DNA of 64,000 bases from Candidatus Magasanikbacteria bacterium RIFOXYC2_FULL_42_28 (GTDB lineage Bacteria; Patescibacteriota; Patescibacteriia; Magasanikbacterales; GWA2-37-8), in NCBI GenBank assembly GCA_001784435.1, contig MFQZ01000010.1, forward strand, positions 169,960 to 233,959, read 5' to 3'. How positions within the stretch are numbered: position 1 is the stretch's first letter; each line of letters begins with the position of its first letter. Positions 2,295-51,478 of this stretch are shown here, one piece after another. The translations under genes were made by a program, and so were the position numbers. The notes beneath the pieces are model-generated. The model was not told the origin of the DNA. It made no database searches and saw nothing but the letters and a program-made list of their open reading frames with translations.

Positions 2295-5200
2295 ATGAAA
2301 AGGAATTTATCACAAAAATTAAAATTCGCTTTCGCTTGGCTCGCCCCTCGTCGCAAATGGGGCATACTTAGCGTGTCCGCGCTGGCGGTTTTAATTTTTG
2401 CCGGCGTTATCCTTACCACCACTCCGGCCGCGGCGGATGTTCTGGATTATGTTAATCGGGCATTTGCTTGGATTAATTTTGCTGTTTCTCGGTTGTTTTT
2501 ATCACTCGCTCTCTTTTTGCTTACTTTTGTTATTCAAATTGCCGGCTATAACGGCTATATTGATTCGGTGGCGGTCAATGTCGGTTGGGTGATGGTGCGT
2601 GACTTGGTTAATATGGCGTTTGTAATATTTTTATTGGTTATCGCTTTTGGCACGATTTTGGGATTGGAACAATACGAATGGAAAAAGTTAATGGTCAAAT
2701 TTGTTTTGGCCGCTATTTTAGTGAATTTTTCCCGCGTGATTTGCGGACTGATGATAGACGTGGCGCAGGTGTTTATGACCACCTTTGTCAATGGCATCGC
2801 GGCCACGGCCGGCGGTAATTTGATAACGGCTTTTTCGGCTGACAAATTGTATAAATTTAACCCCGATACCAATGGCACCGAAATTAACGATACCGAGTCC
2901 TTTATCGCGAGCATCGCGGCGGTGATGTTCGCCGGCATGATGATGATGACGATGTTTGCCATCGCGGTGATGTTACTCGCGCGTTTGGTCGTGCTGTGGG
3001 TGTTGATTGTTTTGTCGCCCATGGCTTTTGCCTTAAATGTTATCCCCAAAACCGAAAAATACGCCCAAGAATGGTGGCAAGAATTTGGTCAAAATTTAGT
3101 CGCCGGTCCGATTTTAATATTTTTTATCTGGTTATCATTGGTAACCGTGGGCGGGGGCGATGTGGCCAAAGAAATTAGCGCGAACAATGTTGTTAAACAA
3201 GATAACAGCCAACAGCCCAAATCCGGCATTTCTGAAGTAATGGAATGGGAAAACATGGCCAGTTTCGCGATTGCCATCGGGATGTTGCTTGTCGGCGCGA
3301 AAATTACCCAGCAAATGTCCCCGCAAGGTGGACAGTTTGTCGGCAAAGCAGCGGAATTTGGGAAGAAGGTGGCAATGGTGGCGGCCGGAGCGACGACTGC
3401 GAAATGGGGGCTGAAAGCCGGTAAGGCAGCGGGTAAATTTGCTTTAATGGAAATACCTTATGGCGGAAATTTTTGGAAAGCGAAAGCAAAAACTGAATGG
3501 GAAAGCGCGAAAACCGCGATGTATGGTAAGGCCGCCGGTATAACCAAGGAAAGTACGGAATTGAATAATGCTGCTGGGGAAAAGCGAGAAAAAGCACAAT
3601 CATTGCGACAACTTGCGAAAACGGAGACCAATGACGTTAAGAAAAAGAAGTATGAAGAAGCAGCTGCTCTTGCTGAGAAAGAAATGGAAGATCTAGAAGC
3701 TCGGGCGCAAGAAGCAATGGCGCCGAGTCGTTTAAGCAAGCGCGGCAAGGCATTAAAGGCGCAAGCTGCCGCGAAGAAAAAAGAGTCCGAAGATTTGCGA
3801 CAACGGGCCGCGACGGCCACAACACCGGAAGCGCAAGCTGATTTGGAAGTCCAAGCCAAAGTCGCTGATACCGAAGCGACTGAATTGCGACGACAACAAG
3901 AAGAAGAAACCACTCGCGGTGGTGGCGGGATTGTTGGGGCAATAGTTAGACAACGCATCGGCTACATGAAGCAATTAAAAAAATCTGAAGGGCAAAGAGA
4001 AATTCGAGAGAAATTAGCTTTTAAAAGGGCATCTGGTGATTCCGGCGGCTGGATTTTTAATCGGTCGGATGGTCAAGTAAAAGATGCTTATCGTTACGAA
4101 AAAGGCATGTTGGAAGTTGAGGAAATGCGCAGTTCGGCCAAAGACAAAGAATATTCCGCGATTGGTAAATCCGGCGCGTTGGGTATGCGTCGCTATCGTG
4201 ATGGCCGTTTTTTGCCGGGTGCTACTATGGCCGAACAGATCGCTAAACATGGCCGTGGTAGCGCGAGAATGGAAAGTGTTTCCAAAACCATTCAAGCGGC
4301 GACCGAGCTAAAGATTGATTTGGCAGCCAAAGCGAAAATTGATGAAGTTGATGTCGCCAAAGCGGCCTTGGATGTTGGTTTGCAAACAACAGCAGAAAAA
4401 GAATTATTAGCGAAAAAAGCGCAAGCCGAAGAAGACGCGAAGACCGCTCAAGAAAGAATAGAAGCGGAATTCGCGCCGGCGATAACAGCGGCGCAGGTGG
4501 CTATTAATGATCCAAAAGCTGAGTTTAATAAAGATGTGGCAAAAGCGGAGGATGATTTAGTAGATTATAGAAAAAATAAAAAGGTAAACGATATATTGAC
4601 GACTGATGAGCAAACAAGGCAAGCTAATTTGGATAAAGAAGCGGCCGATTTGCAGACTGTTATCCAGAATAGTGAGCTTGCGATGCAAGAAGCATTTAAG
4701 AAATACCAGGAAGAACGTCGGGGAATAACTGACGCAGATGCGTTAAAAACAGCAGATGAAAAATTCAAAACAGACCATGGGAAAAGACAGAAAGAGGTTA
4801 ATGACAAAAAGAATGAACTAGAACAATTAGGTTCAAGGAGAAATAAGACAGCGGCAGAAGAAAAACTTGAGAAAAATTTAGAAGATGCTAAAACTGCCAG
4901 AGAGGCAAAAGGTGCCGAAAATGGGTATGATACTGTAAAAAAAGCTTTGGTAGATAAAGAAACAGAAAAACAAGAAAAATTTGAAAAAGCCAGGACCGGA
5001 ATAGTTGCTGCCCAAAAAGCGATCGATGCTTACACCAAAAAAGATCCAACAACAAAGAAGAGTATCCAAGATACTGACCGTGAAGCAGAATTTAAAGCCG
5101 ACCCGACCACCGGCTCTAAAGATTTTGCGACCAGAGAGGCCGAAGTAAAAGCTAGAAAAGCGGCTTTGGAAGCCAGTTTAAATACTGTTCCCGGCGCCGG

Positions 5201-7085: not shown

Positions 7086-8540
7086 ATGAAAACAAAATTA
7101 TACAATTATCTGTATAATACCGGCGTGCCGATAAATGAGGTGTATACACCTTTATTGGCGTTGGCGAATAAATTTGCTTCGCCGTCGTCGAATAATTTTT
7201 GGCAAACCATTATTACTGTTTCTGATTATATGAAGGCGCGGTACCAAACAGAACAATGGTATCCGGAAAAGATTATTTTTGGTTTAGTAGAGTGGAAAAC
7301 CGCGAGTGATTTAGCCGCGTCTTTGGAGGCGATTGACCGTTTGCTCGCGCGTTCGGGCGTGTCGCTGGTGGACAACACTAAAACACGCGGTAAGTTTATT
7401 GGTTTAGAGTTGAATGATGCCACCTTAAAACATTGGGCCAGCGCTTATGATCTTGCCGATTCGGTTGTTAAAAATCGCGTTGATAGTGAGTTGCCGATAG
7501 CACTATCGCTTTTTGCGCGTCTTAACATTCAATTTCAAACCGTGGGCATGCTCATCAATTTACCGCTTGGCCCGGCTCTTTATTCTAAGGCAGAAGTGAA
7601 TAATTTTGTTAATGTTGGGGGGGCGGACTGTGATTTTGCTCGTTTGGTTTTCACTTTGCGGGAAATGTCAATTACCGATGCTCGCCACGAGGTCTATGTG
7701 ATTGTTAAAGAATTTTTATTAGCCGACCATTGTTTGAATAATGAAAATTTAGAATGGGAACAGGCGGTCTTATTGGTTTGGTCTTTGGGATTTATGTTTA
7801 ATGAATTTGAACGTTTGTCCTCCGAAGACCAGATTTGGTTAATCAATAATTATTATTATCGAGCGTTTGCGATTGGCGTGCCTTTAAAAATAATTTTACA
7901 ATCATACCTTCTATCATCGCGTTGGGTAGTTGAATATGTGCGGAAATGTTCGGCTTTAATTTTAAATATTGAGAATAATTCTGAAAATGTTTATTTTGGC
8001 GGTGAAGAAAATAATTCTGCCTTTGGTTTAATCAGCGCCGAATATCACCGTCGATTAGCGGACAAAATATCCGAGGGGCTGTCGGATCAAACTGTGGCCG
8101 AGGCCTTTGTTGCCGGTTTATTTGGCGGTGGATACGACGAGAGCGCGCCCACGTATTATCATTGGCTACAAGAAGCGTTAATAGTATACGTCGGCTTGAA
8201 AGAATCGACTTTGGTGGATTGGCTGAAAGATGGCGACTCACCGTTAAATTATGAAAATCGCGGAGAGTTGATCAAATTGTTGACTTATTTTGTTTATGGC
8301 GGAGAGTTTGTCAAGTTGGTGGAATATTTCCAAGATAAAAAATCAAAAGTTCCATTTAAAATATTTTTAAATTATATAAAAGACGCTGTTGATTTGTCGG
8401 TTGACGTGATTATTCAGAATTGTCTAGCGTTTGCCGAAGTGATGCGCGACAATGGTTTGCTATCTTCGGACGATGACCTAATCGAATATCACCAGGAGGA
8501 TGGCCAATTTTATTGGAATAAAAAATTGTTAAAACAGTAA
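7086..8540 (+). CDS. hypothetical soluble protein, paralog of the next gene
   Basis: Shared segments: LSSEDQIWLINNYYYRAFAIGVPLKIIL here versus LSSETQIELIKKFTLKALCWGVPLDKVL in the 8544 gene. Tightly linked, same strand. Confidence 0.5.
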   Translation: MKTKLYNYLYNTGVPINEVYTPLLALANKFASPSSNNFWQTIITVSDYMKARYQTEQWYPEKIIFGLVEWKTASDLAASLEAIDRLLARSGVSLVDNTKTRGKFIGLELNDATLKHWASAYDLADSVVKNRVDSELPIALSLFARLNIQFQTVGMLINLPLGPALYSKAEVNNFVNVGGADCDFARLVFTLREMSITDARHEVYVIVKEFLLADHCLNNENLEWEQAVLLVWSLGFMFNEFERLSSEDQIWLINNYYYRAFAIGVPLKIILQSYLLSSRWVVEYVRKCSALILNIENNSENVYFGGEENNSAFGLISAEYHRRLADKISEGLSDQTVAEAFVAGLFGGGYDESAPTYYHWLQEALIVYVGLKESTLVDWLKDGDSPLNYENRGELIKLLTYFVYGGEFVKLVEYFQDKKSKVPFKIFLNYIKDAVDLSVDVIIQNCLAFAEVMRDNGLLSSDDDLIEYHQEDGQFYWNKKLLKQ

Positions 8541-8543
8541 ATT

Positions 8544-9722
8544 ATGTCGGCATTTTATTTTTTACAATCATCTAGTCCGGAGACGTGGAAACAACGCGTC
8601 GATTTGTTGATAAGAATTGGGATGATAGCCGACGATTTATTTTTGGGGAAATGGGAGAATGATTCTGTCTGGGGCTGGTCAAAATTTTTAGTAGCTGATT
8701 TGGCAAAATTTAATAAAGAAAAGATTCCGTCTGATTGGCGGTATCAGTCGTTTTTTTACGCGTTGGTTGGTTTTTTGGATTTTTCTCTACTTGAAAAAAT
8801 TACCAATGAGTTGGATAAGTTGGCGCGTATTAAAATTGGCCCGGCATCAAAGGGGGCGACAATCATTAGTACTGTTTCTGAAGAATGGAACGCTTTGGGT
8901 GATTTTTTGGATTTGACACCAGCTGGCGGGGGTATTTTGAGGAACAAAGTAAGCGGATTAACGGCCGTTGAATTAGAAAAATTAACAGCCGATATGCGTG
9001 TGTTAGCGGATGATTATAATGATTTTCGCATTGTTTTTAAATTTGTGGCGACCGCGTTGCTTTATCATATTCCGCCCGTGCCGGCAGTTGATTTGGATGG
9101 TTTTAAATATGCTGTGTCGGTTCAAGCCGAACAGAAAAAAAATGATTTTAGTATTGATCACGGATTGCTTTGCACTAATTTTTTAGGGTGGTCGTTTTTA
9201 AAGCGGGATGAAAAAGTGATGCGTTGGGCCGCGGAATATCTGCGACAGTTTTCCGTCGAATCGATTAAATATGATAGTCCGTTTGATTTGATTTTTTTAA
9301 TTGGTATTTTACATTTAGCTTTTTATAATTTTACCGGATTATCATCTGAAACACAGATTGAGCTGATTAAAAAATTTACTCTGAAAGCGCTCTGTTGGGG
9401 GGTGCCGCTAGACAAAGTGTTGTTATCCAAGTCGGGCGAAGGATTGTCTGTCGCCACCGGCCCAAAAAATACGAGAGCGCTGTTTACTGCTTTAGAAAAT
9501 AGTGAGGAGACAATGAATTTTGGTTCTGATAAAGTTTTAATGAATGTTGGGCAATTTGTTAAGCAATTTTTATTGTCGGCTCATCGTGATTATGGGGGAT
9601 ACGCGCAGACCGAATATGTTGGAGACGCGATCAGAGAAAATCATTGGCCAGATGGCGCGCGTGTTTATTTATTCGCACTTTTAAAATGTTGTTTATATTT
9701 AAAAGCCGGCAGTTCCGCTTGA
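8544..9722 (+). CDS. hypothetical soluble protein, paralog of the 7086 gene
   Basis: See the previous feature; 4-nt intergenic gap. Confidence 0.5.
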   Translation: MSAFYFLQSSSPETWKQRVDLLIRIGMIADDLFLGKWENDSVWGWSKFLVADLAKFNKEKIPSDWRYQSFFYALVGFLDFSLLEKITNELDKLARIKIGPASKGATIISTVSEEWNALGDFLDLTPAGGGILRNKVSGLTAVELEKLTADMRVLADDYNDFRIVFKFVATALLYHIPPVPAVDLDGFKYAVSVQAEQKKNDFSIDHGLLCTNFLGWSFLKRDEKVMRWAAEYLRQFSVESIKYDSPFDLIFLIGILHLAFYNFTGLSSETQIELIKKFTLKALCWGVPLDKVLLSKSGEGLSVATGPKNTRALFTALENSEETMNFGSDKVLMNVGQFVKQFLLSAHRDYGGYAQTEYVGDAIRENHWPDGARVYLFALLKCCLYLKAGSSA

Positions 9723-9806
9723 AGTCAATTGGTGTTGTATCGCTTTAAAATATGGTAAACAGCAATTAGTCCGCTATTTTATTAAAAAAATCCACCCGCA
9801 CCATTT

Positions 9807-9899
9807 AAAACCTTTTAAGCATCCTTAAAAGGTTTTGTAAAAATAGGGTATGGCAGACGCGATTAGATACTTGACAGCGATGTGGTTAAATGTTACAAT
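9807..9899 (+). promoter_or_regulatory. copy 1 of palindrome+promoter element: aaaaccttttaag-catc-cttaaaaggtttt inverted repeat followed by TTGACA-N17-TACAAT
   Basis: Inverted repeat at 9807-9838; -35 TTGACA at 9871-9876 and -10 TACAAT at 9894-9899, read directly. Related copies at 11341 and 13074. Confidence 0.5.
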
Positions 9900-9932
9900 A
9901 ATAGGTATATATATACTTATAAATGTAAACTT

Positions 9933-11330
9933 ATGGAAATCTCGCTTATTTTAGAGGAAATTACTCGACAGAATAAGTTCTGGGCGCGAGAAAAACAGCG
10001 TGATTTTTTTGGTAATAATACGTTTAAACGTGAATTGTACCCACGGCTTGTCGCTTTACTGACCGATCGGCTAATTATTTCGATCGTTGGATTGCGACGT
10101 GTTGGTAAAACAGTTTTACTCAAACAATTAATTGGGCATTTGATAGATAATGACAAAGTTGAACCGCGCAATATTTTATTTTTAAGTTTTGATGAAGCGA
10201 TGCTGAGTTCGGCTGTCAAACTCGACGATTACTTGCGGATTTATTTAAGCCATTTTCAGGCGCGACGCACCGGGCGTTTGTATATTTTTTTAGATGAAAT
10301 TCAATATGCGCCCGAGTGGCAACATATTTTAAAACGATTTTATGACACCGAACCGAATATTAAATTTATTATTTCCGGTTCGTCCTCGCTTTTTTTAAAA
10401 AAGAAAGCGACCGAAAGTTTAGTTGGTCGGATTTATGAATTTAATTTACCGGTATTAAGCTTTGTGGAATATTTGGAATTGGCCCAAGTTTTTTCCGCCA
10501 ACTTGTCAATTTTTAAATCTTTGCTATGTGATATCAAGGCGGGATCGAAAGATTGGTTGAAATTAGACGTCGCCAGAAAGATTTTTTTGTCCGAGCATTC
10601 ACTTTGGTTGGCCGGACAATTTGATGAATATTTACTACGTGGACAATTTCCCGAAGTGGTAGGCGAAAAAGATATTGTTAAAATTGAAAGATATTTACGT
10701 GAATCAGTTTATAAAAAAACCATTGAATTTGATATCCCACGGTTATTTGGCGCTGATAAGGTTGGTGATTTAAAATTTATTTTTCAAGTCCTGGTTAACG
10801 AAACAGGTAATCAGTTTGAAGTTGGCAATCTGGCCCAAGAGGCGCAGATCGATCAAAAAACTCTTACTCGCTATTTATCTTTTTTTGAAGAAAGTTTGTT
10901 GGCGCGGATTTTATATAACTATTCGCGCTCATTGCGTAAAACCCATCGCCAGCCCAAGAAGATTTATATTAGTAGTACTAATTTTTATCCGTTGGACTTG
11001 GCTACGCCGCTTGAAACCCGCGGTGCAATTTTGGGGCATTTAGCTGAAACGCATGCCTGCAATTTATTGCGAGCGCGTTTTGATAATTTATCATTTTATC
11101 GTGTGCGGAAACAGGAAGTTGATTTTATTGGAGCGGACAACTGGTTGGATCGGTCATCCTATCGCTTAATTGAAGTAAAATATCGGTCTGATGTCAGTCG
11201 ACAAAGGTTTGTGTTTTTGGAAAATACCGCTAAGCGTTTTGGTGTTGGTCGGTTGCCGGTGGTTTTAACAAAATATGAATTTGGCGTTTCAGAAAAATTA
11301 GCGTTGGTGCCGTTATTTATGATAAAGTAA
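9933..11330 (+). CDS. AAA+ ATPase of the COG1373/DUF4143 type (Walker A GLRRVGKT, Walker B IFLDEIQ)
   Basis: Motifs visible in the translation. Start moved from the track's 9882 to the ATG at 9933 (MEISLILEE) because the promoter -10 ends at 9899. Confidence 0.6.
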   Translation: MEISLILEEITRQNKFWAREKQRDFFGNNTFKRELYPRLVALLTDRLIISIVGLRRVGKTVLLKQLIGHLIDNDKVEPRNILFLSFDEAMLSSAVKLDDYLRIYLSHFQARRTGRLYIFLDEIQYAPEWQHILKRFYDTEPNIKFIISGSSSLFLKKKATESLVGRIYEFNLPVLSFVEYLELAQVFSANLSIFKSLLCDIKAGSKDWLKLDVARKIFLSEHSLWLAGQFDEYLLRGQFPEVVGEKDIVKIERYLRESVYKKTIEFDIPRLFGADKVGDLKFIFQVLVNETGNQFEVGNLAQEAQIDQKTLTRYLSFFEESLLARILYNYSRSLRKTHRQPKKIYISSTNFYPLDLATPLETRGAILGHLAETHACNLLRARFDNLSFYRVRKQEVDFIGADNWLDRSSYRLIEVKYRSDVSRQRFVFLENTAKRFGVGRLPVVLTKYEFGVSEKLALVPLFMIK

Positions 11331-11340
11331 TACTAAGTGT

Positions 11341-11451
11341 TTTTAAGTACATTTAAAAGGTTTTGAAAAAATAGGGGAGTTTTTGGGCATAAAGAGTTAT
11401 CCACAGAGGTAGTTTGACATTTTTAACTGTTTTAAGTATACTTAAAACATA
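11341..11451 (+). promoter_or_regulatory. copy 2 of palindrome+promoter element (degenerate palindrome, TTATCCACAG box, TTGACA-N17-TATACT, palindromic ttttaagtatacttaaaa over the -10)
   Basis: TTATCCACAG at 11397-11406, -35 at 11414-11419, -10 at 11437-11442. The perfect palindrome ttttaagtatacttaaaa at 11431-11448 is a candidate operator. Confidence 0.5.
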
Positions 11452-11477
11452 GCATAAAAATATGAAATGTTTTAAGT

Positions 11478-12692
11478 ATGTTTAAAGAATATATCAAAAG
11501 AGAGGTTTATGTTAATAAAATTCGTCCTTTTATCGGCAAGGATATTATTAAGGTTTTAGTTGGCCATAGACGGGTCGGTAAGAGTTATTTGTTGTATCAG
11601 ATAATGGATGAAGTCAAAAACCAAGATTCAAAAATAGAGATTGTGTATATTAATAAGGAGTTAAATGATTTTGCCGATATTGTTGATCATCAGAGCTTGC
11701 TTAAATATATTGATTTAAAAAAAAATAAAAATAGTGGCGGAAAAACCGCGCTATTTATCGACGAAGTGCAGGACATTATTAATTTTGAAAAGGCCCTGCG
11801 TCACCTAAACGCCTCCGGGCAGTTTGATATTTATTGTACAGGCAGTAATGCTAAATTGTTATCAGGCGAGTTGGCGACTTTTTTGTCCGGTCGGTATATA
11901 GAAGTTGAAGTGCGCGGTTTGTCGTACAATGAATTCTTGGAATTTCATAAATTGGCAAAAGGTAAAGAATCTCTATTTCGTTATATTAAATATGGCGGTT
12001 TACCATATTTAATTAATTTACCACCGGAAGACGATGCCGTGTATGATTATTTGCGCAACATTTATAACACTATCGTTTTAAAAGATGTGGTCGAGCGTTT
12101 TAGATTAAGGAATGTAAATTTGCTGGAAAGATTGATTGAATATCTTGCGGATAATGTTGGTAGTTTGGTTTCAGCCAATAATATCAGTGATTTTTTAAAA
12201 TCGCAAAAAATTAAAATTTCACCGAATACCATTTTAAATTATCTGTCATATTTGGCGGCGAGTTATTTTATTTATAAAGTTCCGCGGCTAGATATTGTGG
12301 GAAAGAAAATTTTTGAGGTTAATGATAAATTTTATTTTGAGGATTTAGGATTAAGGCATGTGGTGGTTAATTACAAACAATCGGATATTAATAAAATTTT
12401 AGAAAATTTAGTGTTTTCGCATTTGAAATATATTGGTTATGAGGTTAAGGTCGGCCAATTGGGCCAGCAGGAAATTGATTTTGTAGCAAGCCGGGGTGAG
12501 GCGCGGGTTTATGTGCAAGTGGCTTACTTGCTAAATAGCGAGGCGGTCAAGCAACGAGAGTTTGGCAATTTATTAAAAATTGATGATAATTATAAAAAAA
12601 TAGTGGTGAGTATGGATGATTTTGGCGGGGGGAATGTTAGCGGTATCGAGCAGTGGAATGTCGTAGATTTTTTATGTGATTTTCTCGGGTAG
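11478..12692 (+). CDS. second AAA+ ATPase of the COG1373/DUF4143 type (Walker A GHRRVGKS, Walker B LFIDEVQ)
   Basis: Motifs in the translation; paralogous architecture to the 9933 gene. Confidence 0.6.
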   Translation: MFKEYIKREVYVNKIRPFIGKDIIKVLVGHRRVGKSYLLYQIMDEVKNQDSKIEIVYINKELNDFADIVDHQSLLKYIDLKKNKNSGGKTALFIDEVQDIINFEKALRHLNASGQFDIYCTGSNAKLLSGELATFLSGRYIEVEVRGLSYNEFLEFHKLAKGKESLFRYIKYGGLPYLINLPPEDDAVYDYLRNIYNTIVLKDVVERFRLRNVNLLERLIEYLADNVGSLVSANNISDFLKSQKIKISPNTILNYLSYLAASYFIYKVPRLDIVGKKIFEVNDKFYFEDLGLRHVVVNYKQSDINKILENLVFSHLKYIGYEVKVGQLGQQEIDFVASRGEARVYVQVAYLLNSEAVKQREFGNLLKIDDNYKKIVVSMDDFGGGNVSGIEQWNVVDFLCDFLG

Positions 12693-12716
12693 AATTAAAA
12701 TAATTATGAATTTATT

Positions 12717-12962
12717 ATGAAAACTATAATAGAAATAGACCGAAAGCAAGATGAAGTAATCCGCCTTCACTTATCCAATGACGACTATGATGATTTTGGC
12801 TGGATAGACATGTGGACGACCAAAGAAAAAGAGGGGGATGAGCCGGAGCAGAGTGAAACCGTGAATTTTTTCATTGACGATTTACGCGCGGCTCTAGAAG
12901 GATTTGTGGCGCAAAGAGAGTTGCAACATAAGCGAGATCAGATGTTGAAAGAAAATGAGTAG
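12717..12962 (+). CDS. small acidic hypothetical protein (81 aa)
   Basis: ORF only; no motif recognised. Confidence 0.35.
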   Translation: MKTIIEIDRKQDEVIRLHLSNDDYDDFGWIDMWTTKEKEGDEPEQSETVNFFIDDLRAALEGFVAQRELQHKRDQMLKENE

Positions 12963-12989
12963 ACAAGTTGATAATTTTGAGATTTAATT

Positions 12990-13075
12990 TTTGGCAATAC
13001 TGTGCTATAATATATCCATGACCAATAATGCTTCACCGACAATTTTAGTCAAAAAATCCGACGGCACGTTCACAA
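12990..13075 (+). repeat. about 85-bp duplicate of the promoter and first ~20 codons of the gene at 14619 (copy at 14610-14695)
   Basis: gctataatatatccatgaccaataatgcttcaccgacaattttagtcaaaaaatccgacggcac versus ggtataatatacctatggacaataataccaaacaaccaacaattttagtcaaaaaatccgacggcac, read directly. The upstream copy runs into the palindromic element and a stop. Confidence 0.75.
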
Positions 13076-13178
13076 AACCTTTTAAGCACCCTTAAAAGGT
13101 TTTGTAAAAATAGGGGAAATTTTAAGTATAAAGTTATCCACAGCACCGTTTGACTTATCAGTGTTATTTTGGTAAATT
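13074..13178 (+). promoter_or_regulatory. copy 3 of palindrome+promoter element (perfect aaaaccttttaag-cacc-cttaaaaggtttt, TTATCCACAG, TTGACT-N17-TAAATT)
   Basis: Palindrome at 13074-13105; TTATCCACAG at 13134-13143; -35 at 13150-13155. Confidence 0.5.
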
Positions 13179-13197
13179 AGCACAATATACTAATTTT

Positions 13198-13782
13198 ATG
13201 AAATGGATTGATTTTGAGAAAAGTATTAAAGATAAAGATATTAAGTTATTTACACCGCGCGATGTAAGTGTTTTTTTGGGTCGCTCAACAATTGCTGTGC
13301 GATTTTTAATGCATCGCCTAAAACAAAACGGACAAATTATGGGGGTTAAGCGCGGTCTTTATAAATTATCCGGTCAACTCGTACCTGATTATTATTTGGC
13401 TAATAGAATTTACGCTCCCTCCTATATTTCTTTAGAATCGGCGTTGTCATATTATGGTGTTATTCCGGAAACCGTATATGAAATTACGTCAGTAACTTCT
13501 AAAATTACTCGTCGTTTTGAAACCGCCGGAAAAATTTTTTCTTATCATAAAATTAAACAATCTGCTTTTACCGGTTATGGTATAGCGCACCAAGACGGAG
13601 CAAATTTTTATTTGGCTGACGCGGAAAAAGCGTTTATAGATGTGTGTTATCTGCGGTTATTGGCGGGCCGAGAGTCGATATCTCGTTTTGACAAAACAAA
13701 GCTTAATAAGGAGAAAACTTTAAGTTATGCTGATTTGTATAAAAATAAAAAATTAGTTGCGACTATTCGTAAATTATTATGA
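13198..13782 (+). CDS. abiEi: AbiEi-like antitoxin/transcriptional regulator (type IV TA, COG5340-like)
   Basis: About 195 aa with an N-terminal wHTH-like region and SLESALSYYGVI segment. It overlaps the downstream AbiEii-like gene by 4 nt. Start taken at 13198, downstream of the promoter; the track gives TTG at 13150. Confidence 0.5.
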   Translation: MKWIDFEKSIKDKDIKLFTPRDVSVFLGRSTIAVRFLMHRLKQNGQIMGVKRGLYKLSGQLVPDYYLANRIYAPSYISLESALSYYGVIPETVYEITSVTSKITRRFETAGKIFSYHKIKQSAFTGYGIAHQDGANFYLADAEKAFIDVCYLRLLAGRESISRFDKTKLNKEKTLSYADLYKNKKLVATIRKLL

Positions 13783-14540
13783 TTACCAAAGATTATATTG
13801 AGAAATTAGCAAAGCTTGGCCATGTTGCAACATTTCCAAATATCGCGAGAGAGTATTTTCAGCATGTTTTTTTGTCAAATTTAAGTCAGATTCCTGGTGG
13901 GGAAAAGTTATTGTTTAAGGGTGGTACGGCCTTGCGAATAGTTTATGGTAGTCCGCGTTTTTCCGAAGATTTAGACTTTTCTTTGTTCGGCGTCTCGCAC
14001 TCGCTCGTTAATAAATTTGTGGAAGATATTTTTCTGAAGATTTTATCTGAAATTGAAAGGACTGGGATTAAGGTTGAATTGGGTAAAAAAAGCGGAGAAA
14101 CAAGCGGCGGATATTTTGGTGTGGCATCGTTTCGGTTCTATGATTATCCTTTGATTGGCGTTGAGATCAATGTATCCGCGCGAGGAACCAAGCAGTTGGC
14201 CGGGGAAGCAGATAGTATCGTTAGCGATTTTGCGCCGGCGTATTCGTTATTGCATTTACCGCAAATTGTTTTGGTTGAAGAAAAAATATTTGGCGCTTTA
14301 CTGGAACGCAAAAAACCACGTGATTTTTATGATTTGTATTTTATTATGCGCAAAGGAATGCTAACGAATGAGCAGAAACAGCGATTATCAACGGTCAAAA
14401 ATAAAATAATCGCGAGTGCCAAGAAGATCGATTTTCGATATGAACTCGGTGTTTTTTTACCTTCTGACCAGCAATTGATTGTACGGGATTTTTCAGCAGT
14501 TTTAGAGCGGGAGTTAAATAGACAATTAGCAAAAATCTGA
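13779..14540 (+). CDS. abiEii: AbiEii-like nucleotidyltransferase toxin (DUF1814 family)
   Basis: N-terminal LLFKGGTALRIVYGSPRFSEDLDFS matches the family's conserved GGTAL / RFSEDxDF signature as I recall it. Size about 250 aa; operon overlap with the upstream antitoxin. Confidence 0.65.
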   Translation: MITKDYIEKLAKLGHVATFPNIAREYFQHVFLSNLSQIPGGEKLLFKGGTALRIVYGSPRFSEDLDFSLFGVSHSLVNKFVEDIFLKILSEIERTGIKVELGKKSGETSGGYFGVASFRFYDYPLIGVEINVSARGTKQLAGEADSIVSDFAPAYSLLHLPQIVLVEEKIFGALLERKKPRDFYDLYFIMRKGMLTNEQKQRLSTVKNKIIASAKKIDFRYELGVFLPSDQQLIVRDFSAVLERELNRQLAKI

Positions 14541-14618
14541 TGATTTTATAATTTTTGCAATTAAGTAAAATAATATTCGCACCGGCACCAAATATTTGAT
14601 TAGGTAATTGCGTCTATT

Positions 14619-15665
14619 TTGTGGTATAATATACCTATGGACAATAATACCAAACAACCAACAATTTTAGTCAAAAAATCCGACGGCACCTTCGCGCGGA
14701 TGTCTTTGGGGGAGATAAAAAAGATGAAAGTGGGTAAAATTACAGCACCGTCGTCTGTCATCCTGAATGAAATGAAGGATCCCTTGAAGTTGGCAGTAAG
14801 GGATTCTTCGGTCGCTACGCTTCCTCAGAATGACAATAACAAAAAAGTCGGAATGACAGGTAAAGACGCCAAGTCGCTTTTAGAAGAAGACAAATTGGTA
14901 GCCCCGGGCACGAGCGTTGCCGTTGGCCGAAATAATCAGGTGGACACGGTAATTAAAAAACTATCATTTTCCGTCGCGTCTAATTTTTTCAATCGTTTGC
15001 GGAGCGCGATTCAGTTGCGTTTAAAAGATGTACGCGGGGAAAAAGAAACACGCGCCACGGTGTTGCGTTCTATAAAAGACGGGGGACTGGGCTTGACTGA
15101 AACCCAAGCCAACGAATTGGAGCAAGTGTGCGCGACGGTGGGTAATTTATTGGCGCGACCACCGGCTAAAAGTAAAACTGATTTAATGGTTGAAGATCAA
15201 ATTTTACCGCAAACGTTTCACAAAATGCCTGTGCCGGCGAAAATGGCTCCACATAACGCGTTTGTGCATGAGGAATTTTTAAAAAAAGAAGAAAAATTTA
15301 AAATTAGTCCAGTGGCTGTTAGCCGACCGGCGATGAAGGATGTGGTTGCCGCCGCCGCGCCGGTCGGGCCGGTGGAGGAAATTAAATTTTTTACCCTAAC
15401 TGATTTTCGGCGTTTGGCCCAAGACCCTAACCAAGCCACCAAACGTTTGGCGCAAAAATTTATTAATTTGCGTGAAGAATCAGTTTTGTTATTTTGGCAG
15501 GCCTTGGATGCCTGGAAGCAAAGCCCGTTATTTGCCGACTATGTTGGTGTATTAAATCGAGTTTTTATCGGTAAAGTCGCGTCTGATCAGCAAAAAACGA
15601 GTGACCAGATAACCGATGTTGAGATAAAGGCGCTTATCGCGATGGAAAAAGATTTGGTAATCTGA
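14619..15665 (+). CDS. hypothetical protein (348 aa); its promoter and 5' end are duplicated upstream of the AbiE cassette
   Basis: ORF only; no motif recognised. Confidence 0.4.
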   Translation: MWYNIPMDNNTKQPTILVKKSDGTFARMSLGEIKKMKVGKITAPSSVILNEMKDPLKLAVRDSSVATLPQNDNNKKVGMTGKDAKSLLEEDKLVAPGTSVAVGRNNQVDTVIKKLSFSVASNFFNRLRSAIQLRLKDVRGEKETRATVLRSIKDGGLGLTETQANELEQVCATVGNLLARPPAKSKTDLMVEDQILPQTFHKMPVPAKMAPHNAFVHEEFLKKEEKFKISPVAVSRPAMKDVVAAAAPVGPVEEIKFFTLTDFRRLAQDPNQATKRLAQKFINLREESVLLFWQALDAWKQSPLFADYVGVLNRVFIGKVASDQQKTSDQITDVEIKALIAMEKDLVI

Positions 15666-15677
15666 TATAATAATGTT

Positions 15678-16106
15678 ATGGAGCAATTTACCGTCCCACA
15701 ATTTTTAGATGTTGAAGATAAAATTTTTGGCCCGATTACCACGCGCCAATTTGTGATTTTGCTCGCCACCGGTTTATTTCTGTTTATTGCTTACAAATTG
15801 GCTGATTTTGCGTTGTTTATCACTCTGTTCGTATTTATTGGCGGATTTGCCGTAATTTTGGCGTTTGTTAAAATTAACGGCCAGACCTTCCATTATTTTT
15901 TACTGAATATAATTCAAACCATGCGTCGCCCCAGCCGCCGGTTGTGGCAGAAACGTTATACCGACCAAGAATTAAAAGCAATGGCCGCCGGACCGAAAAA
16001 AGAAATGTTAGAGGCGCCGTCTCCTATTCCCAATCTTTCCAATAGCCGCATTCGCGCCTTGTCGCTCGTCGTTAATACCGGTGGATATTTTAAATATGAA
16101 GAATAA
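15678..16106 (+). CDS. small 2-TM membrane protein, PrgI/VirB3-like candidate
   Basis: 142 aa with two hydrophobic helices (LLATGLFLFIAYKL..., LFITLFVFIGGFAVILAFV). Sits immediately upstream of a VirB4-like ATPase, as PrgI/TcpE do in Gram-positive T4SS. Assignment is by context and architecture. Confidence 0.35.
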   Translation: MEQFTVPQFLDVEDKIFGPITTRQFVILLATGLFLFIAYKLADFALFITLFVFIGGFAVILAFVKINGQTFHYFLLNIIQTMRRPSRRLWQKRYTDQELKAMAAGPKKEMLEAPSPIPNLSNSRIRALSLVVNTGGYFKYEE

Positions 16107-16782
16107 AGCTGTCGCCAAAAAGAAAGTCGCTTTGATATCCGCGCAAAAACATTTGTTTATCGCGGAAATTAAGCAAGATACGGTGATTTTAAAAGACGGC
16201 ACTTTGCGCGCGGTTTTAATGGTGTCCAGTTTGAACTTTGCGTTGAAAAATGAAGACGAGCAAACCGCGATTGTCTCATCGTATGTTGGCTTTTTAAATT
16301 CACTTGATCATCCTTTGCAAATTTTAATTCAGTCACGCGAACTTTATATTAAACCGTATTTAGACGATTTAGCCAAACATGAACATGAACAAACTAACGA
16401 ACTATTGCGCACGCAAATCGCCGATTATCGGTCATTTGTGTCGGAGTTGGTTGAGCTCGGACAAATTACCAGCAAACAATTTTATGTGGTTGTGCCCTAT
16501 GATCCTTTGAGTAATAAAAAACGCAGTTTTTGGTCGCGGGCACAGGAAGTATTGAATCCGATTTCGGCCGTAAAATTAAAAGATGAGAAATTTTTACAAC
16601 GCAAATATGATTTAGATCAGCGAGTGCGTTTGGTAGAGTCAGGGTTGTCCAGTATGGGGTTGGAAGTGAAACGGCTTGATACCCAAACTTTGATTGAATT
16701 GTATTTTTCGTCGTATAATCCGGATATTGCTTTAAGTGAACATTTGCCGGAAATTAATAAAATTCAGGTAGAAGAAGAATAG
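16081..16782 (+). CDS. hypothetical soluble protein in the T4SS-like operon (possibly a split-off N-terminal VirB4 domain)
   Basis: Overlaps the upstream gene and ends 1 nt before the ATPase gene. The VirB4-like ATPase downstream lacks the long N-terminal domain of canonical VirB4. Confidence 0.3.
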   Translation: MDILNMKNKAVAKKKVALISAQKHLFIAEIKQDTVILKDGTLRAVLMVSSLNFALKNEDEQTAIVSSYVGFLNSLDHPLQILIQSRELYIKPYLDDLAKHEHEQTNELLRTQIADYRSFVSELVELGQITSKQFYVVVPYDPLSNKKRSFWSRAQEVLNPISAVKLKDEKFLQRKYDLDQRVRLVESGLSSMGLEVKRLDTQTLIELYFSSYNPDIALSEHLPEINKIQVEEE

Positions 16783-16783
16783 T

Positions 16784-18646
16784 ATGGCCTTCAAACCAGT
16801 ATTCACCAATAAACCGGCGCTAGATAAAGCCAAAATTGCTCTGGAGCAAAAGACCGAAGCGGAGTTGATTACGCTTGAAGAAGAGCGGATTTATCGCGAG
16901 GGCGTGGTTTCAATTAAGGATTTAATTGCTCCGGCGGCTTTTAATGTTGAAAAAGATCATTTGGAATTGGGCACGACATATTGCCGCACCATGTTTATTG
17001 TCAGTTACCCACGTTATATCAGCGTCGGTTGGAGCTCGCCGGTAATAAATTTGTCCGTCAATATGGACATCACCATGTTCTTTTATCCGGTTAAATCAGC
17101 TATTATTTTGAAACAGTTAAGAAATAAAACCGGCGCTTTGCAAGCTCAAATTACCGCTGATTCGGAAAAGGGCGCCCCGCGCGACCCACTCCGTGAAACG
17201 GCTTTGCGCGATGTGGAAGAATTACGCGACAGTTTGACGCAGGGCACGGAACATTTTTTTCAATTTGCTTTTTACGTTACGATTTATACCCAAGACAAAA
17301 CCCGTTTGGATCAATTGTCCGAAGATATCGAAAACATGTTCGGCAGTAAATTAATTACGAGTCGTAAAGTTTTATACCAAGCCGAACAGGGTTTTAATTC
17401 TACCTTACCGCTTTGCAATGACGAACTGATGATCGCGTTCAACATGAATTCCAGTCCGATCGCCGCTTCCTTTCCGTTTATTTCGGCCGAACTTACCTCG
17501 GATGATGGTATTTTATACGGCATTAATCGCCACAACAACAGTTTGATTTTGTTTGACCGGTTTTCGCTTCAAAACGCCAATATGGTGGTGTTTGCCACTT
17601 CCGGCGCGGGTAAAAGCTATGCCATCAAATTGGAAATTTTGCGCTCGATGATGCTTGGCGTGGAAGTGATTGTGATTGATCCGGAAATGGAATATAAACA
17701 TTTGTCCGACGCGGTGGGTGGGACTTACATTAATATTTCGCTTTCGTCAGAAAGTAAAATCAATCCTTTTGATTTGCCACGGCCACGCGAACGCGACACG
17801 CCCGTGTCTGATATTATTCGGGGCGCGGTTATCACTGTCAAAGGTTTGCTTCGGATTATGTTGGGCGGTTTTACTACTCAAGAGGACTCCATTATTGACC
17901 GCGCTTTGATTGAAACCTACGCCAAAAAAGATATTACGCCGGAAGCGGATCTGTCGGCTGTCAAACCACCGATAATGCAGGATTTGCAAGAAATTTTAGA
18001 AGGCATGACCGGCGCGGATGAATTGGTTTTAAAATTGCAAAAATATACCGAAGGCACTTTTGCCGGGTTATTTAATTCGCCCACGAATGTTGACACTAAA
18101 AATCAATTAGTGGTATTTTCCGTGCGTGATTTGGAAGATGAATTGCGCCCGATGGCGATTTACGCCATTGTTAATTACATTTGGAATACGGTGCGGTCGG
18201 AGCGTAAAAAACGTTTGTTAATTATTGACGAGGCCTGGTGGCTCATGATGCACGAAGACAGCGCTCGTTTTATTCACGCGCTGGTTAAACGTTGTCGCAA
18301 ATATTTTTTGGGTGTTACAACCATTACCCAAGATGTGAATGACTTTTTGGGTTCTAAATACGGACAGGCGATTGTTACTAACTCGGCTTTGCAGTTGCTT
18401 TTGCGTCAATCGCCCGCGGCTATTGATAACATTCAAAAAACATTTTTGCTTACGGACAGCGAAAAATATCTGTTGCTGGAATCAGGTCCGGGTGAGGGGA
18501 TATTTTTTGCTGGCTTGAAACACGCGGCGATAAAAGTGGTGGCGTCGTATACCGAAGATCAAATAGTTACCACTAATCCGGAACAGTTATTACAAATTGA
18601 ACAGTCCAAAAAAGAATTTGAACAGATGAATAAAATTCCGAGTTAA
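16784..18646 (+). CDS. VirB4/TraC/PrgJ-like conjugative/T4SS ATPase
   Basis: Walker A FATSGAGKSY and Walker B RLLIIDEAWWL in the translation. The C-terminal ATPase domain arrangement is typical of the VirB4 family. Confidence 0.6.
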   Translation: MAFKPVFTNKPALDKAKIALEQKTEAELITLEEERIYREGVVSIKDLIAPAAFNVEKDHLELGTTYCRTMFIVSYPRYISVGWSSPVINLSVNMDITMFFYPVKSAIILKQLRNKTGALQAQITADSEKGAPRDPLRETALRDVEELRDSLTQGTEHFFQFAFYVTIYTQDKTRLDQLSEDIENMFGSKLITSRKVLYQAEQGFNSTLPLCNDELMIAFNMNSSPIAASFPFISAELTSDDGILYGINRHNNSLILFDRFSLQNANMVVFATSGAGKSYAIKLEILRSMMLGVEVIVIDPEMEYKHLSDAVGGTYINISLSSESKINPFDLPRPRERDTPVSDIIRGAVITVKGLLRIMLGGFTTQEDSIIDRALIETYAKKDITPEADLSAVKPPIMQDLQEILEGMTGADELVLKLQKYTEGTFAGLFNSPTNVDTKNQLVVFSVRDLEDELRPMAIYAIVNYIWNTVRSERKKRLLIIDEAWWLMMHEDSARFIHALVKRCRKYFLGVTTITQDVNDFLGSKYGQAIVTNSALQLLLRQSPAAIDNIQKTFLLTDSEKYLLLESGPGEGIFFAGLKHAAIKVVASYTEDQIVTTNPEQLLQIEQSKKEFEQMNKIPS

Positions 18647-28577: not shown

Positions 28578-28700
28578 AATGTCAAATTTCCAATTTCCAA
28601 TGTCAAATCAAGCCCAAAATCCAAAACCCAAATTACAAATTGACATTTGAGCTTTGATCTTGATTTGAAATTGGAAATTTGGATTTTGAAATTTTAAGTT
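28578..28700. repeat. MITE-like intergenic element, family A copy 1 (terminal inverted repeats tcaaatttccaatttccaa / ttggaaatttggattttga)
   Basis: Second copy at 32293-32402 sharing about 30 nt at each end. Core atttgagctttga is shared with family B. Confidence 0.7.
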
Positions 28701-32292: not shown

Positions 32293-32402
32293 ATGTCCAA
32301 TTTCCAATTTCCAATGTCAAATCAATGTCAAAGCTCAAACGTTAAATTTGATATTTGGATTTTGGATTTGATTTGACATTGGTAATTTGGATTTTGACAT
32401 TA
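32293..32402. repeat. MITE-like intergenic element, family A copy 2
   Basis: aatgtccaatttccaatttccaatgtcaaatcaa ... ttggtaatttggattttgacatt; see the 28578 copy. Confidence 0.7.
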
Positions 32403-48337: not shown

Positions 48338-48347
48338 TTATCCACAG
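48338..48347 (+). promoter_or_regulatory. TTATCCACAG box upstream of the RM gene
   Basis: One of four identical 10-mers (11397, 13134, 48338, 51469), all upstream of plus-strand genes. Confidence 0.3.
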
Positions 48348-51300: not shown

Positions 51301-51373
51301 AAAAATTATTGTGGTGTTGGTGGAAACGGGGCGGATCATGGGAGAGATTGATGGCGTGGGATTGATATTTTAA
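48371..51373 (+). CDS. single-chain Type IIL/IIG restriction-modification enzyme, MmeI-like (N-terminal PD-ExK nuclease plus gamma-class N6-adenine methyltransferase plus TRD)
   Basis: N-terminal D...EAK nuclease motif (PDFLF...AEAKD), methyltransferase motif I ILDPATGTGTFL and motif IV NPPY (VVLGNPPYN). 1000 aa. Confidence 0.6.
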   Translation: MNYIKIMKNDLVNEYIKSITEKYQSGQAKEHAYRPALQKLFTDITGLNVINDPKRSEYGAPDFLFMKGKVAAAYAEAKDIGVSLDETEKGEQLARYFGYSNLILTDCLEFRFFRNGQKYEAVKIAEIKNGEIVADENNFAHLEDTIKEFINEAKEPIKSGAVLAKVMAGKARRIRDNIKKFLHDGDTQTNESLLSVYNVIKKLLLADLDYDKFADMYAQTVVYGLFAARYHDETPDTFSRQEARDLVPVSNPFLRHFFDHVAGPSFDKRIEFIVNELCEEFVHADVQAIVHDYYKVEKDDSRDPIIHFYEDFLQEYDSAERKKMGVFYTPLPVVRFIVRALDDVLKKEFGLNGLADSAKIEINSVSQGKKFKQSVHKVQILDPATGTGTFLNEVISHIKKSFDGQEGRWANYAREELLPRLHGFEIMMASYTIAHLKLTTTLKESGVDINRGRLGVYLTNSLEKAESYDDTLFAGLGLGQAITDESIAANKVKNDLPIMVVLGNPPYNVSSQNKGEWIGELIKDYKKDLNERNIQPLSDDYIKFIRFSQYLIDKNGEGVIGMITNNSYIDGITHRQMRKSLLESFDSIYILDLHGNAKKKEVAPDGSADQNVFSIMQGVSIAIFVKKSAKKKTLGVVYHAEMFGKQKNKYEALDNSDFEKMKWNKIKYEAPYYFFVPKDFGASEEYESGFKLDDFFSIKAAGIKTHHDDIVIAFSEDNLKKQILNYCDSSNFIFDVEKIKKICYRPFDERFLYYDTKIVVRHRKEQMKHSFYSNLSLLAGRQSKSDQISHFFITNLLSEMKTAESTTGSYHFPLYLYADDGTKIPNLKKEIVQEIEKITGPITPENILDYIYAVLHSPNYREKYKEFLKIDFPRVPYPKDKNQFFALAKLGEELRYLHLLESPKVNSFITTYPVVGDNMVEKIIYENEKVFINKTQYFGGVPKLAWDFYIGGYQPAQKWLKDRKGRKLTNADIEHYQKIIVVLVETGRIMGEIDGVGLIF

Positions 51374-51468: not shown

Positions 51469-51478
51469 TTATCCACAG
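51469..51478 (+). promoter_or_regulatory. TTATCCACAG box upstream of hup
   Basis: See the 48338 feature. Confidence 0.3.

Follow-up and report, generated by a model that had tools for sequence, protein, structure and literature searches.

Analysis of a 64,000-nucleotide stretch of contig MFQZ01000010.1 from Candidatus Magasanikbacteria bacterium RIFOXYC2_FULL_42_28 (hereafter the window) shows that a small cassette encoding an AbiE defence system lies between two diverged direct copies of one gene end, the promoter and first codons of g342. This gene opens a cluster that resembles a type IV secretion system (T4SS). The downstream copy belongs to the intact gene and the upstream copy is stranded as a short stub, an arrangement that is absent from 78 species-level relatives. 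The AbiE cassette is one of three stacked in front of g342, and cassettes of the same architecture recur in other contigs, at g342 and at unrelated genes, where the paired gene ends again look like orthologous alleles that have recombined in their most conserved block rather than a gene end and its decaying self-copy. The reading that we favour, with moderate confidence, is that the cassettes enter by homology-based recombination at a conserved gene end and bring with them a replacement promoter and 5′ end for the gene that they displace.

Duplication of the g342 5′ end around the AbiE cassette

A repeat search of the window identifies the segment 13001-13071 as a diverged direct copy of 14620-14693, with fainter similarity over ~25 nucleotides (nt) farther upstream, to about 12975 and 14596, respectively. 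The repeat consists of two collinear segments, 13001-13029 against 14620-14648 (29 nt, 83% identity) and 13035-13071 against 14657-14693 (37 nt, 95% identity), separated by a single 3-nt indel that keeps the reading frame. Within the second segment, the 29-mer ACAATTTTAGTCAAAAAATCCGACGGCAC is exact at 13039-13067 and 14661-14689 and has no third occurrence in the 64 kb; no such repeat is obtained in 100 shuffles. Local alignment of 12963-13071 with 14541-14700 gives a score of 80, against a top score of 31 in 500 shuffles. The earlier note on this DNA, which had described 12990-13075 as a diverged copy of 14610-14695, is accurate in both coordinates and description.

Both copies contain an extended −10 promoter (TGnTATAAT), and the start codon that lies 7 nt downstream of it opens a run of 18 codons in the upstream copy and 19 in the downstream copy. 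This spacing, as read from the sequence, implies a leaderless mRNA. The upstream copy reads MTNNASPTILVKKSDGTF and then directly enters a palindrome; its open reading frame (ORF) encodes MTNNASPTILVKKSDGTFTKPFKHP and ends at a stop after 25 codons (13018-13095), in agreement with the earlier description of a copy that runs into a palindromic element and a stop. The downstream copy heads an intact gene, as had also been stated, whichever of two possible start codons is used (Table 1).

The product of g342 is a conserved Patescibacteria protein with at least 160 homologues, among which the N-terminal motif PTILVKKxDGTFxRxxLxELKK is the best-conserved part; a hypothetical protein deposited for Candidatus Magasanikbacteria RIFOXYC2_FULL_42 is identical to it over the entire sequence. 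Sequence searches reveal no Pfam, NCBIfam, PADLOC or PDB match for it. A scan with one genome per species, and hence at species-level distance, yielded 78 loci, and the gene order g548, g1587, (g484/g392-like), g342, PrgI, TraC-like, VirB4, g199, ComF is found in all 78. The end of the upstream gene lies at most 30 nt from the g342 ATG in 45 of the 66 loci in which the start could be placed automatically, and this upstream gene has a typical C terminus (...F.W...*), which is shared by g484 of the window. Five contigs with an identical g342 protein all show the same neighbours. None of the 78 relatives has AbiE or AAA_14 genes upstream of g342, and none has a second copy of the N-terminal motif. 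According to the earlier proposal, the AbiE unit entered the gene at its 5′ end by insertion or recombination, and relatives free of the cassette should carry a single copy; the relatives, with a single 5′ end and no cassette, support this proposal and bear out its prediction, and a duplicated 5′ end without a cassette, which had been named as contrary evidence, is seen in none of them.

The combination of this −10 with a start codon 7 nt downstream stands directly ahead of g342 only in the window and in two other loci, L080 and L081. These are also the three genomes in which g342 is preceded by an accessory gene; the −10 motif itself is a generic strong −10 in these bacteria. The closest relative, L080, whose g342 homologue is only 60% identical, was considered as an empty site and rejected, since the site is occupied by a PDC-S01 gene distinct from those of the window, with its end ~20 nt ahead of the same promoter module. 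Comparison of DNA identity between module and gene body, window against L080, was uninformative as a sign of separate transfer of the 5′ module, the block being simply the most conserved part. The g342 5′ block has no match on viral contigs.

Allelic gene ends around cassettes in other contigs

The clearest view of how the copies relate to each other comes from L081, whose g342 homologue is 39% identical to that of the window and in which a 0.8-kb single-gene cassette, encoding a Bro-N-domain protein, lies between 37-nt repeats (97% identity). The left copy is at its native place, 3 nt after the ...KFKWKD* stop of the upstream gene, as in other relatives, whereas the right copy has TGTGGTATAATAT in front of it and encodes an N terminus that is longer than, and unlike, that of the left copy but similar to the N termini found in the window and L080. 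On the upstream side of the 37-nt block the two copies are thus unrelated, a native operon junction facing a promoter module plus extra codons, and since the right copy has a promoter and codons that are lacking in the native left copy, promoter and first codons were imported along with the cargo.

Similar arrangements are found at two other target genes. In L097, AbiEi and AbiEii homologues (63-65% identical to those of the window) lie between 52-nt repeats, identical at 51 of 52 positions, that represent codons 1-17 of the DegT-like aminotransferase gene lying downstream. In L098 and L099, a PDC-S01 ATPase gene and AbiE are bordered on one side by a stub that comprises codons 1-20 of mutL and on the other by the intact mutL gene, and a fragment of a histidine-kinase C terminus has been carried along at the left. 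The junction falls 54, ~54, 49, 52 and 60 nt after the start codon of the stub in the five cases, which involve three target genes, and the palindrome-led cassettes of the window and the Bro-N gene of L081 join g342 within ~4 nt of each other. The copy pairs of the window, L081 and L098 share a further pattern: their 5′ parts differ by conservative substitutions and by an indel of 3 nt that keeps the frame, whereas a block of 23-31 nt beside the junction matches perfectly. In-frame indels, conservative changes and a perfect block at the junction together indicate allelic copies. The resident gene end is left behind as a stub, an allelic gene end on the cassette side (accompanied by a promoter where 5′ ends are concerned) rebuilds the gene, and the site is used again.

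These observations bear on the possibility that the duplication was made in situ, either as a long target-site duplication (TSD) from widely staggered nicks or as a local tandem duplication that later received AbiE and whose upstream copy decayed. Such an origin would fit the direct repeats on both sides of the insert, the near-identity of the L097 pair and the finding that, with L080 as outgroup, the upstream copy of the window has more unique changes than the downstream copy. Known transposon TSDs, however, measure 2-15 bp, whereas the copies here span 71-97 nt and contain a 3-nt in-frame indel, and those of L081 have only 37 nt in common, with unrelated sequence upstream. Indels are in frame in all three diverged pairs and substitutions are conservative, contrary to what a decaying copy would show; the repeat search detects no terminal inverted repeats joining the cassette ends, the cargo comprises AbiEi/AbiEii or PDC-S01 ATPases only, with no transposase, and relatives provide no example of the duplication on its own. 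L081 and the allelic differences largely exclude a transposase-type TSD or a simple tandem duplication, and we regard an in situ origin of any kind as highly improbable. The earlier designation as a target-site-like duplication therefore holds in that a direct repeat flanks AbiE, but the repeat is not a filled-in TSD.

Gene 3′ ends and intergenic sites show looser parallels. In L095, the final ~14 codons of a g484-like gene (..LPTSQF[RH]WNEEALK*) are present in four copies, at 26-70, 1081-1125, 1738-1780 and 2539-2583. These separate Bro-N, 138-amino-acid (aa) ORF and DUF3800 cassettes upstream of g484b-g342, an arrangement that reads as a 3′-end version of the stub-separated array. In L100 (and also in L101-L103), the 3′ end of a PEP-utilising enzyme gene occurs four times (2506-2691, 4221-4309, 8232-8324 and 9630-9810), and the copies separate two AbiE pairs and other genes. 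A 76-nt direct repeat (95% identity, 1434-1509 and 3050-3125) surrounds a PDC-S01-type ATPase gene upstream of the g1587 promoter in L013, and a 138-nt exact repeat (1219-1356 and 2861-2998) together with a diverged duplication of ~1 kb surrounds a small AbrB/RelE-like toxin-antitoxin pair in L059. An identical AbiEii protein (P0160) is present in four contigs with differing downstream neighbours, which suggests active cassette shuffling. No flanking repeat was detected in L104 and L106, which contain AbiE homologues; of L094, L095 and L096, whose homologues have similar N termini, L095 and L096 carry accessory genes upstream with no 5′ duplication, and L094 is native.

A three-cassette array upstream of g342

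The earlier account, which concerned the AbiE unit, can be extended, the junction in front of AbiE being one of three such junctions in the window rather than a single event. Three cassettes occupy a low-GC islet of 4.9 kb (about 9746-14693), in which GC content is 0.30-0.40 across 9800-14600, compared with ~0.43-0.47 outside. From left to right, the islet contains remnant 1, a palindrome, a PDC-S01 cassette, a half palindrome whose remnant is lost, a cassette with PDC-S01 and an 81-aa ORF (orf81), remnant 2, a palindrome, the AbiE cassette, the functional promoter and 5′ end, and g342 (Table 1). PDC-S01 is a candidate defence family of PADLOC.

Table 1. Coordinates of the features of the g342 locus in the window.
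Feature	Position	Strand	Description
Remnant 1	9746-9804	+	Decayed g342 5′ end, TAAAAT-ATG ... ATTTTATTAAAAAAATCCACCCGCACC; ~25 nt after the g392 stop
Palindrome A	9805-9838		Second copy, 2 mismatches, 0 expected; left end of cassette 1
Cassette 1 promoter	9871-9899	+	TTGACA-17-TACAAT, scan 11/12
Cassette 1 cargo	9933-11330	+	AAA_14/DUF4143 ATPase; Pfam AAA_14 3e-35, DUF4143 1e-18; PADLOC PDC-S01 7e-56
Site B	11345-11442	+	Truncated left end of cassette 2: half palindrome, AAAAAATAGGGGA, ATAAAG, GTTATCCACAG, promoter 11414-11442 (11/12)
Cassette 2 cargo, ATPase	11478-12692	+	AAA_14/DUF4143 (Pfam); PADLOC PDC-S01 2e-144
Cassette 2 cargo, 81-aa ORF	12717-12962	+	No family match
Remnant 2	12975-13071	+	Displaced g342 promoter and first 18 codons; −10 TGcTATAAT 13003-13011, ATG 13018
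Palindrome C	13072-13105		34 nt, 15-nt perfect arms, 4-nt loop; left end of AbiE cassette
Left-end element of AbiE cassette	13106-13197	+	AAAAATAGGGGA, ATAAAG, GTTATCCACAG, then AbiE promoter
AbiE promoter	13150-13178	+	TTGACT-17-TAAATT with TG
AbiEi	13198-13782	+	PADLOC 3e-41; NCBIfam AbiEi match under the family cut-off
AbiEii	13779-14540	+	PADLOC 4e-23; Pfam AbiEii 5e-24
Right end of AbiE cassette	14596-14693	+	Replacement promoter and 19 codons, in frame with the resident gene; TGgTATAAT 14622-14630, ATG 14637
g342	14637-15665	+	342 aa from ATG 14637, or 348 aa from TTG 14619; first gene of the T4SS-like cluster
Genes 3′ of g342	15678 (PrgI), 16081 (TraC-like), 16784 (VirB4-like), 19249 (ComF-like)		A 199-aa gene lies between the VirB4-like and ComF-like genes

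Remnant 1 occupies the position expected for the native g342 start and meets palindrome A at the same junction as that at 13071/13072. It has decayed, with an in-frame stop and changes in conserved codons, and its statistical support is limited to 9776-9802, which matches both other copies at 81% over 26-27 nt, a score reached by 1-2 of 500 shuffles. Site B is defined by its alignment to site C, at the left end of the AbiE cassette, and by a 22-mer match; it has no significant RNA fold and no g342 remnant, which has presumably been deleted. The oldest-looking remnant is the one farthest from the gene, as expected for serial insertion at the functional 5′ end, and the third remnant fused to a second palindrome copy, together with the half palindrome, likewise indicates serial insertion.

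The palindrome reads ACAAAACCTTTTAAG-CACC-CTTAAAAGGTTTTGT. Palindrome C folds at −22.1 kcal/mol on the minus strand (z = −5.0) and appears as a hairpin in the plus-strand centroid; palindrome A, which stands exactly at the start of the low-GC block, has an RNA fold of −20.6 kcal/mol (z = −3.7), and the right half of a third copy lies at about 11345-11376, between the two ATPase genes. The palindrome abuts the repeat junction at two of the three sites, AAAAATAGGG comes next after all three copies, and sites B (11345-11442) and C (13086-13178) have a further ~60 nt in common before the promoter of each cargo. Each cassette has a good promoter downstream of its palindrome. The same letters may also be read as an A-tract, a 9-bp stem with three G-C pairs, a 4-nt loop and a T-tract, which a scan for the terminator consensus did not call because the A- and T-tracts pair with each other. 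The palindrome could accordingly act as a bidirectional terminator that insulates each cassette, which would explain why g342 needs an imported promoter. Beyond its three occurrences in the window, the element is absent from the other loci, including L081, L097 and L098; a scan with a 21-mer returned 10 matches in metagenome contigs, all in unrelated chance contexts, and none in viral contigs, and neither palindrome nor leader matches an Rfam family at E ≤ 1.

Two further motifs, TGTGGTATAATAT and TTATCCACA, were considered as cassette-specific signals and rejected, both being generic promoter-region motifs in these genomes. The second, a DnaA-box consensus, occurs four times in the window, each time on the + strand (11397-11405, 13134-13142, 48338-48346 and 51469-51477; 0.43 expected), and its copies are promoter-proximal, two of them in cassette left ends and the others in the promoter spacer of a Type ISP restriction-modification gene and ahead of the HU gene. 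The inverse motif TGTGGATAA is found in relatives ~45-50 nt upstream of the promoter of the g1587-homologue operon, and TTATCCACA is possibly a general regulatory motif in Magasanikbacteria.

The cargo of the third cassette is, by prediction, an AbiE system formed by an adjacent AbiEi/AbiEii pair, in which the AbiEi stop and the AbiEii start overlap by 4 nt. Just after the AbiE −10, an inverted repeat, AAATTAG-n9-CTAATTT (13174-13196), is suggestive of a candidate AbiEi operator; promoter and inverted repeat are conserved upstream of the AbiEi homologues of L097 (~1300-1325) and L098 (~4390-4415), which are 60-63% identical. L098 also contains, adjoining its AbiE genes, a 62%-identical orthologue of the second PDC-S01 ATPase of the window.

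The layout of the upstream copy raises the question of a present function, one that would be compatible with an origin by insertion: promoter, 25-codon leaderless ORF and hairpin might together serve the AbiE operon as a leader, attenuator or insulator. The extended −10 is intact and the start codon kept, and the hairpin follows directly, with A- and T-tracts on either side. In L081, moreover, stub and cargo overlap at the stop codon of the one and the start codon of the other (ATGTCTGA), so that the promoterless cargo is probably expressed from the displaced start. Yet the AbiE operon has its own conserved promoter and candidate operator, Rfam offers no match, and the decay of remnant 1 and the loss of any remnant at site B indicate that the stub is not maintained; co-option of this kind appears very doubtful.

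Several other features of the locus and the window deserve mention. The VirB4-like ATPase of the T4SS-like cluster is divided between two adjoining ORFs, a TraC-like N-terminal part (16081-16782) and a P-loop part (16784-18646), a split that is kept in all relatives; the PrgI gene is not called in L081. Within g342, an in-frame palindromic repeat at about 14770-14850 (gtcatcctgaatgaa...cctcagaatgac, peptide VILNEMKDP...LPQNDN) resembles short palindromic repeats dispersed in related genomes, and translated palindromic repeats are also seen in g342 homologues (VIPAKAGIQ, SFRAEPQ and LRSAQDDN). In L081-L083, the g342 homologue overlaps at its 3′ end with a free-standing GIY-YIG endonuclease gene (L081 2194-2571, L083 1210-1626), and in L096 such a gene lies directly upstream of the homologue (4536-4832). 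In L039, a 25-nt piece of the g342 5′ block, aaaccggatggaacttt[t/g]gccaaag, is present in frame inside a large upstream gene, 7.6 kb away (2334-2358 against 10034-10058, 96% identity, E = 5e-7). Elsewhere in the window, another defence gene, at 48371-51373, encodes a 1000-aa Type ISP/IIG restriction-modification enzyme (Type_ISP_C 6e-80, N6_Mtase), and an exact 27-nt direct repeat, AATTTCCAATTTCCAATGTCAAATCAA, stands in intergenic DNA at 28585-28611 and 32299-32325, 3.7 kb apart, flanking DUF4012, MreB and glycosyltransferase genes.

Proposed route of insertion and its wider meaning

According to the favoured reading, the segment 12975-13071 would be the earlier 5′ end of g342, displaced and stranded as a 25-codon stub when recombination placed the 1.55-kb AbiE cassette within the best-conserved part of the g342 5′ coding region, just after the codons D-G-T-F. 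The cassette would begin at its left end with the terminator-like palindrome, followed by the AbiE promoter, and would end at the right with a strong extended −10 and the beginning of an orthologous g342 (a leaderless start and 19 codons), so that an exchange inside the 29-nt identical block would join the imported 5′ end in frame to the resident gene body. The same process would have taken place at least three times at this locus, the newest cassette being the one that adjoins the gene. A homology-driven exchange of this type could proceed by a Campbell-type single crossover of a circular piece composed of cargo and gene end. More simply, a related lineage could donate an allele that already contains the insertion, whose stub and gene body would serve as the left and right arms, respectively. 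Donor DNA would be taken up by competence from related lineages, with no enzyme encoded by the cassette, and selection in compact genomes would retain only those insertions that include the gene end and rebuild the gene. We infer the recombination pathway, the circular intermediate and the competence uptake, as well as the terminator role of the palindrome.

Homology-based insertion-duplication is consistent with the varied length of the repeats around the other cassettes (40 nt to about 1 kb) and with the inclusion of gene 3′ ends among them. Searches reveal no recombinase or transposase in the cassettes or elsewhere in the 64-kb window, and no tyrosine or serine recombinase in the flanks of the related loci examined. 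Several points nevertheless weigh against this reading. In all four independent 5′-end cases, which concern three unrelated genes, start codon and junction are 49-60 nt apart, a narrow range that plain homologous recombination does not predict, and the joining of unrelated cargos to g342 within ~4 nt suggests a site preference. Identical blocks of 23-52 nt are at the lower limit for RecA-type exchange, and the reading does not account for how a cassette first became linked to the 5′ end of a new target gene. The comparison, moreover, includes no close empty-site strain or excised circle, the nearest g342 homologue being that of L080.

The constancy of the junctions keeps a rival reading in play, namely site-specific integration through a recombinase acting in trans, as for integrase-less, att-flanked cassettes of the CIME (cis-mobilizable element) or integron type. 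The repeats would then be attL and attR, the 23-31-nt block the core and the palindrome the recombinase-binding site, with the gene for the enzyme at another place in the genome or on a helper element. The narrow distance between junction and start codon agrees with this view, as do the palindrome that abuts the junction at two of three sites, the unrelated cargos found in different genera at the same g342 position, and the tandem cassettes with gene-end remnants between them, which recall accretion at att sites (PMC5704250, PMC3146451). On the other side, an integrase is absent in and near every cassette examined and from the window, and the targets, which comprise at least three unrelated genes as well as gene 3′ ends and intergenic sites, have only a G+C-rich run in common. 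Repeat lengths range from 37 nt to about 1 kb, and the palindrome is absent from L081, L097 and L098 and is not found in public metagenome or viral contigs. A recombinase in trans thus seems rather unlikely, if worth serious consideration.

Among described systems, those that stack units at gene ends come nearest to the present array. CIMEs of the ICESt1/ICESt3 family at the 3′ end of fda undergo tandem accretion at gene-end att sites (PMC5704250). As in those elements, the element-side copy keeps the gene intact and successive insertions produce tandem arrays with gene-end remnants between them: the window contains three cassettes and two remnants, and L080 and L081 have different cargos at the same g342 position. 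Unlike CIMEs, the cassettes target a 5′ end and accordingly bring a promoter and start codon; they are units of 0.8-1.7 kb with one gene or operon, they use several unrelated target genes, no related integrase-bearing element is seen, and the copies resemble diverged alleles rather than a short identical core. Arrays with partial gene ends or tRNAs are also known from the ssrA genomic islands of Dehalococcoides (PMC3146451) and the tycheposons of Prochlorococcus (bioRxiv 10.1101/2020.12.28.424599). These likewise occur in streamlined genomes with few classical mobile elements, stack cargo at one conserved gene and show partial gene-end copies between units, with newer units beside the gene and some units lacking integration modules. 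They differ, however, in targeting RNA genes (tmRNA, tRNA) at the 3′ end, in having serine or tyrosine recombinases and in having repeats of a fixed 20 bp or a partial tRNA, none of which was found at the loci described here.

Integron cassettes are similar in being small, single-function and devoid of mobility genes, in being stacked at one site with the newest nearest the recombination site, and in having a palindromic element at their boundaries; in L081, the promoterless cargo is apparently read from a resident promoter. The present cassettes differ from them in lacking IntI and attI, in having fragments of the target gene as boundaries and, for the most part, in having promoters of their own. 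An integron was rejected, the window containing no match to the integrase family and the palindrome lying 5′ of the genes and lacking a GTTRRRY (R″/R′) box.

Phage 21 and e14, at icd, carry a diverged replacement gene end. Together with Campbell-type insertion-duplication, they provide a parallel to the favoured homology-based reading: the duplicated segment is the homologous segment of the incoming DNA, insertion is harmless only if it includes the gene end, the copies are chimeras of donor and recipient, and the element-borne copy is diverged yet functional. The loci described here appear to show the corresponding features, namely a repeat equivalent to the homologous segment, allele chimeras and an exchange in the identical block. 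They differ in having only 50-100 nt of homology, of which 23-52 nt are identical, in involving neither a vector nor a phage or integrase, and in the almost invariant distance of the junction from the start codon (49-60 nt). In its repeated gene end, rebuilt gene and stacked units, the array follows a known logic; what is different is the use of 5′ ends with a promoter, the size of the cassettes, the several unrelated targets and the lack of an identified recombinase in the window and the loci examined.

The constancy of the junction may also be taken at face value. The cassettes would then represent an undescribed, integrase-free route by which small defence units move in Patescibacteria. A cassette would dock a fixed 17-20 codons into a conserved gene, leave the resident start behind as a stub and provide a promoter and gene start of its own, so that the host gene is never lost, a process driven not by chance exchange but by dedicated host machinery, for example competence-linked recombination or an unrecognised nuclease or recombinase with a start-proximal ruler. 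We consider this unlikely; if true, the arrays would be functionally analogous to integrons, and this in a phylum considered to have hardly any mobile elements.

Bacteria of the candidate phyla radiation have tiny, tightly packed genomes with few recognisable mobile elements. Their density of defence genes is nonetheless high, and in groundwater bacteria few defence families are as common as AbiE (PMC12259885). Taken alone, the duplication at g342 is an insertion scar, and its wider interest comes from the three-cassette array and from the recurrence of an enzyme-less cassette architecture in Patescibacteria. The locus offers a sequence-level answer to the question of how one kind of defence-gene acquisition may proceed, with cassettes placed in the most conserved few dozen bases at a gene end, supplying a replacement promoter and gene start, or a gene end, and forming stackable arrays without an enzyme of their own. 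For annotation, short N-terminal stub ORFs and unexpected internal promoters in these genomes should be regarded as possible insertion scars. If general, this route would explain how compact operons tolerate insertion, would make gene-end stubs a simple search signature for accessory and defence genes in uncultured lineages, and would provide a testable design for gene delivery into the few transformable Patescibacteria.

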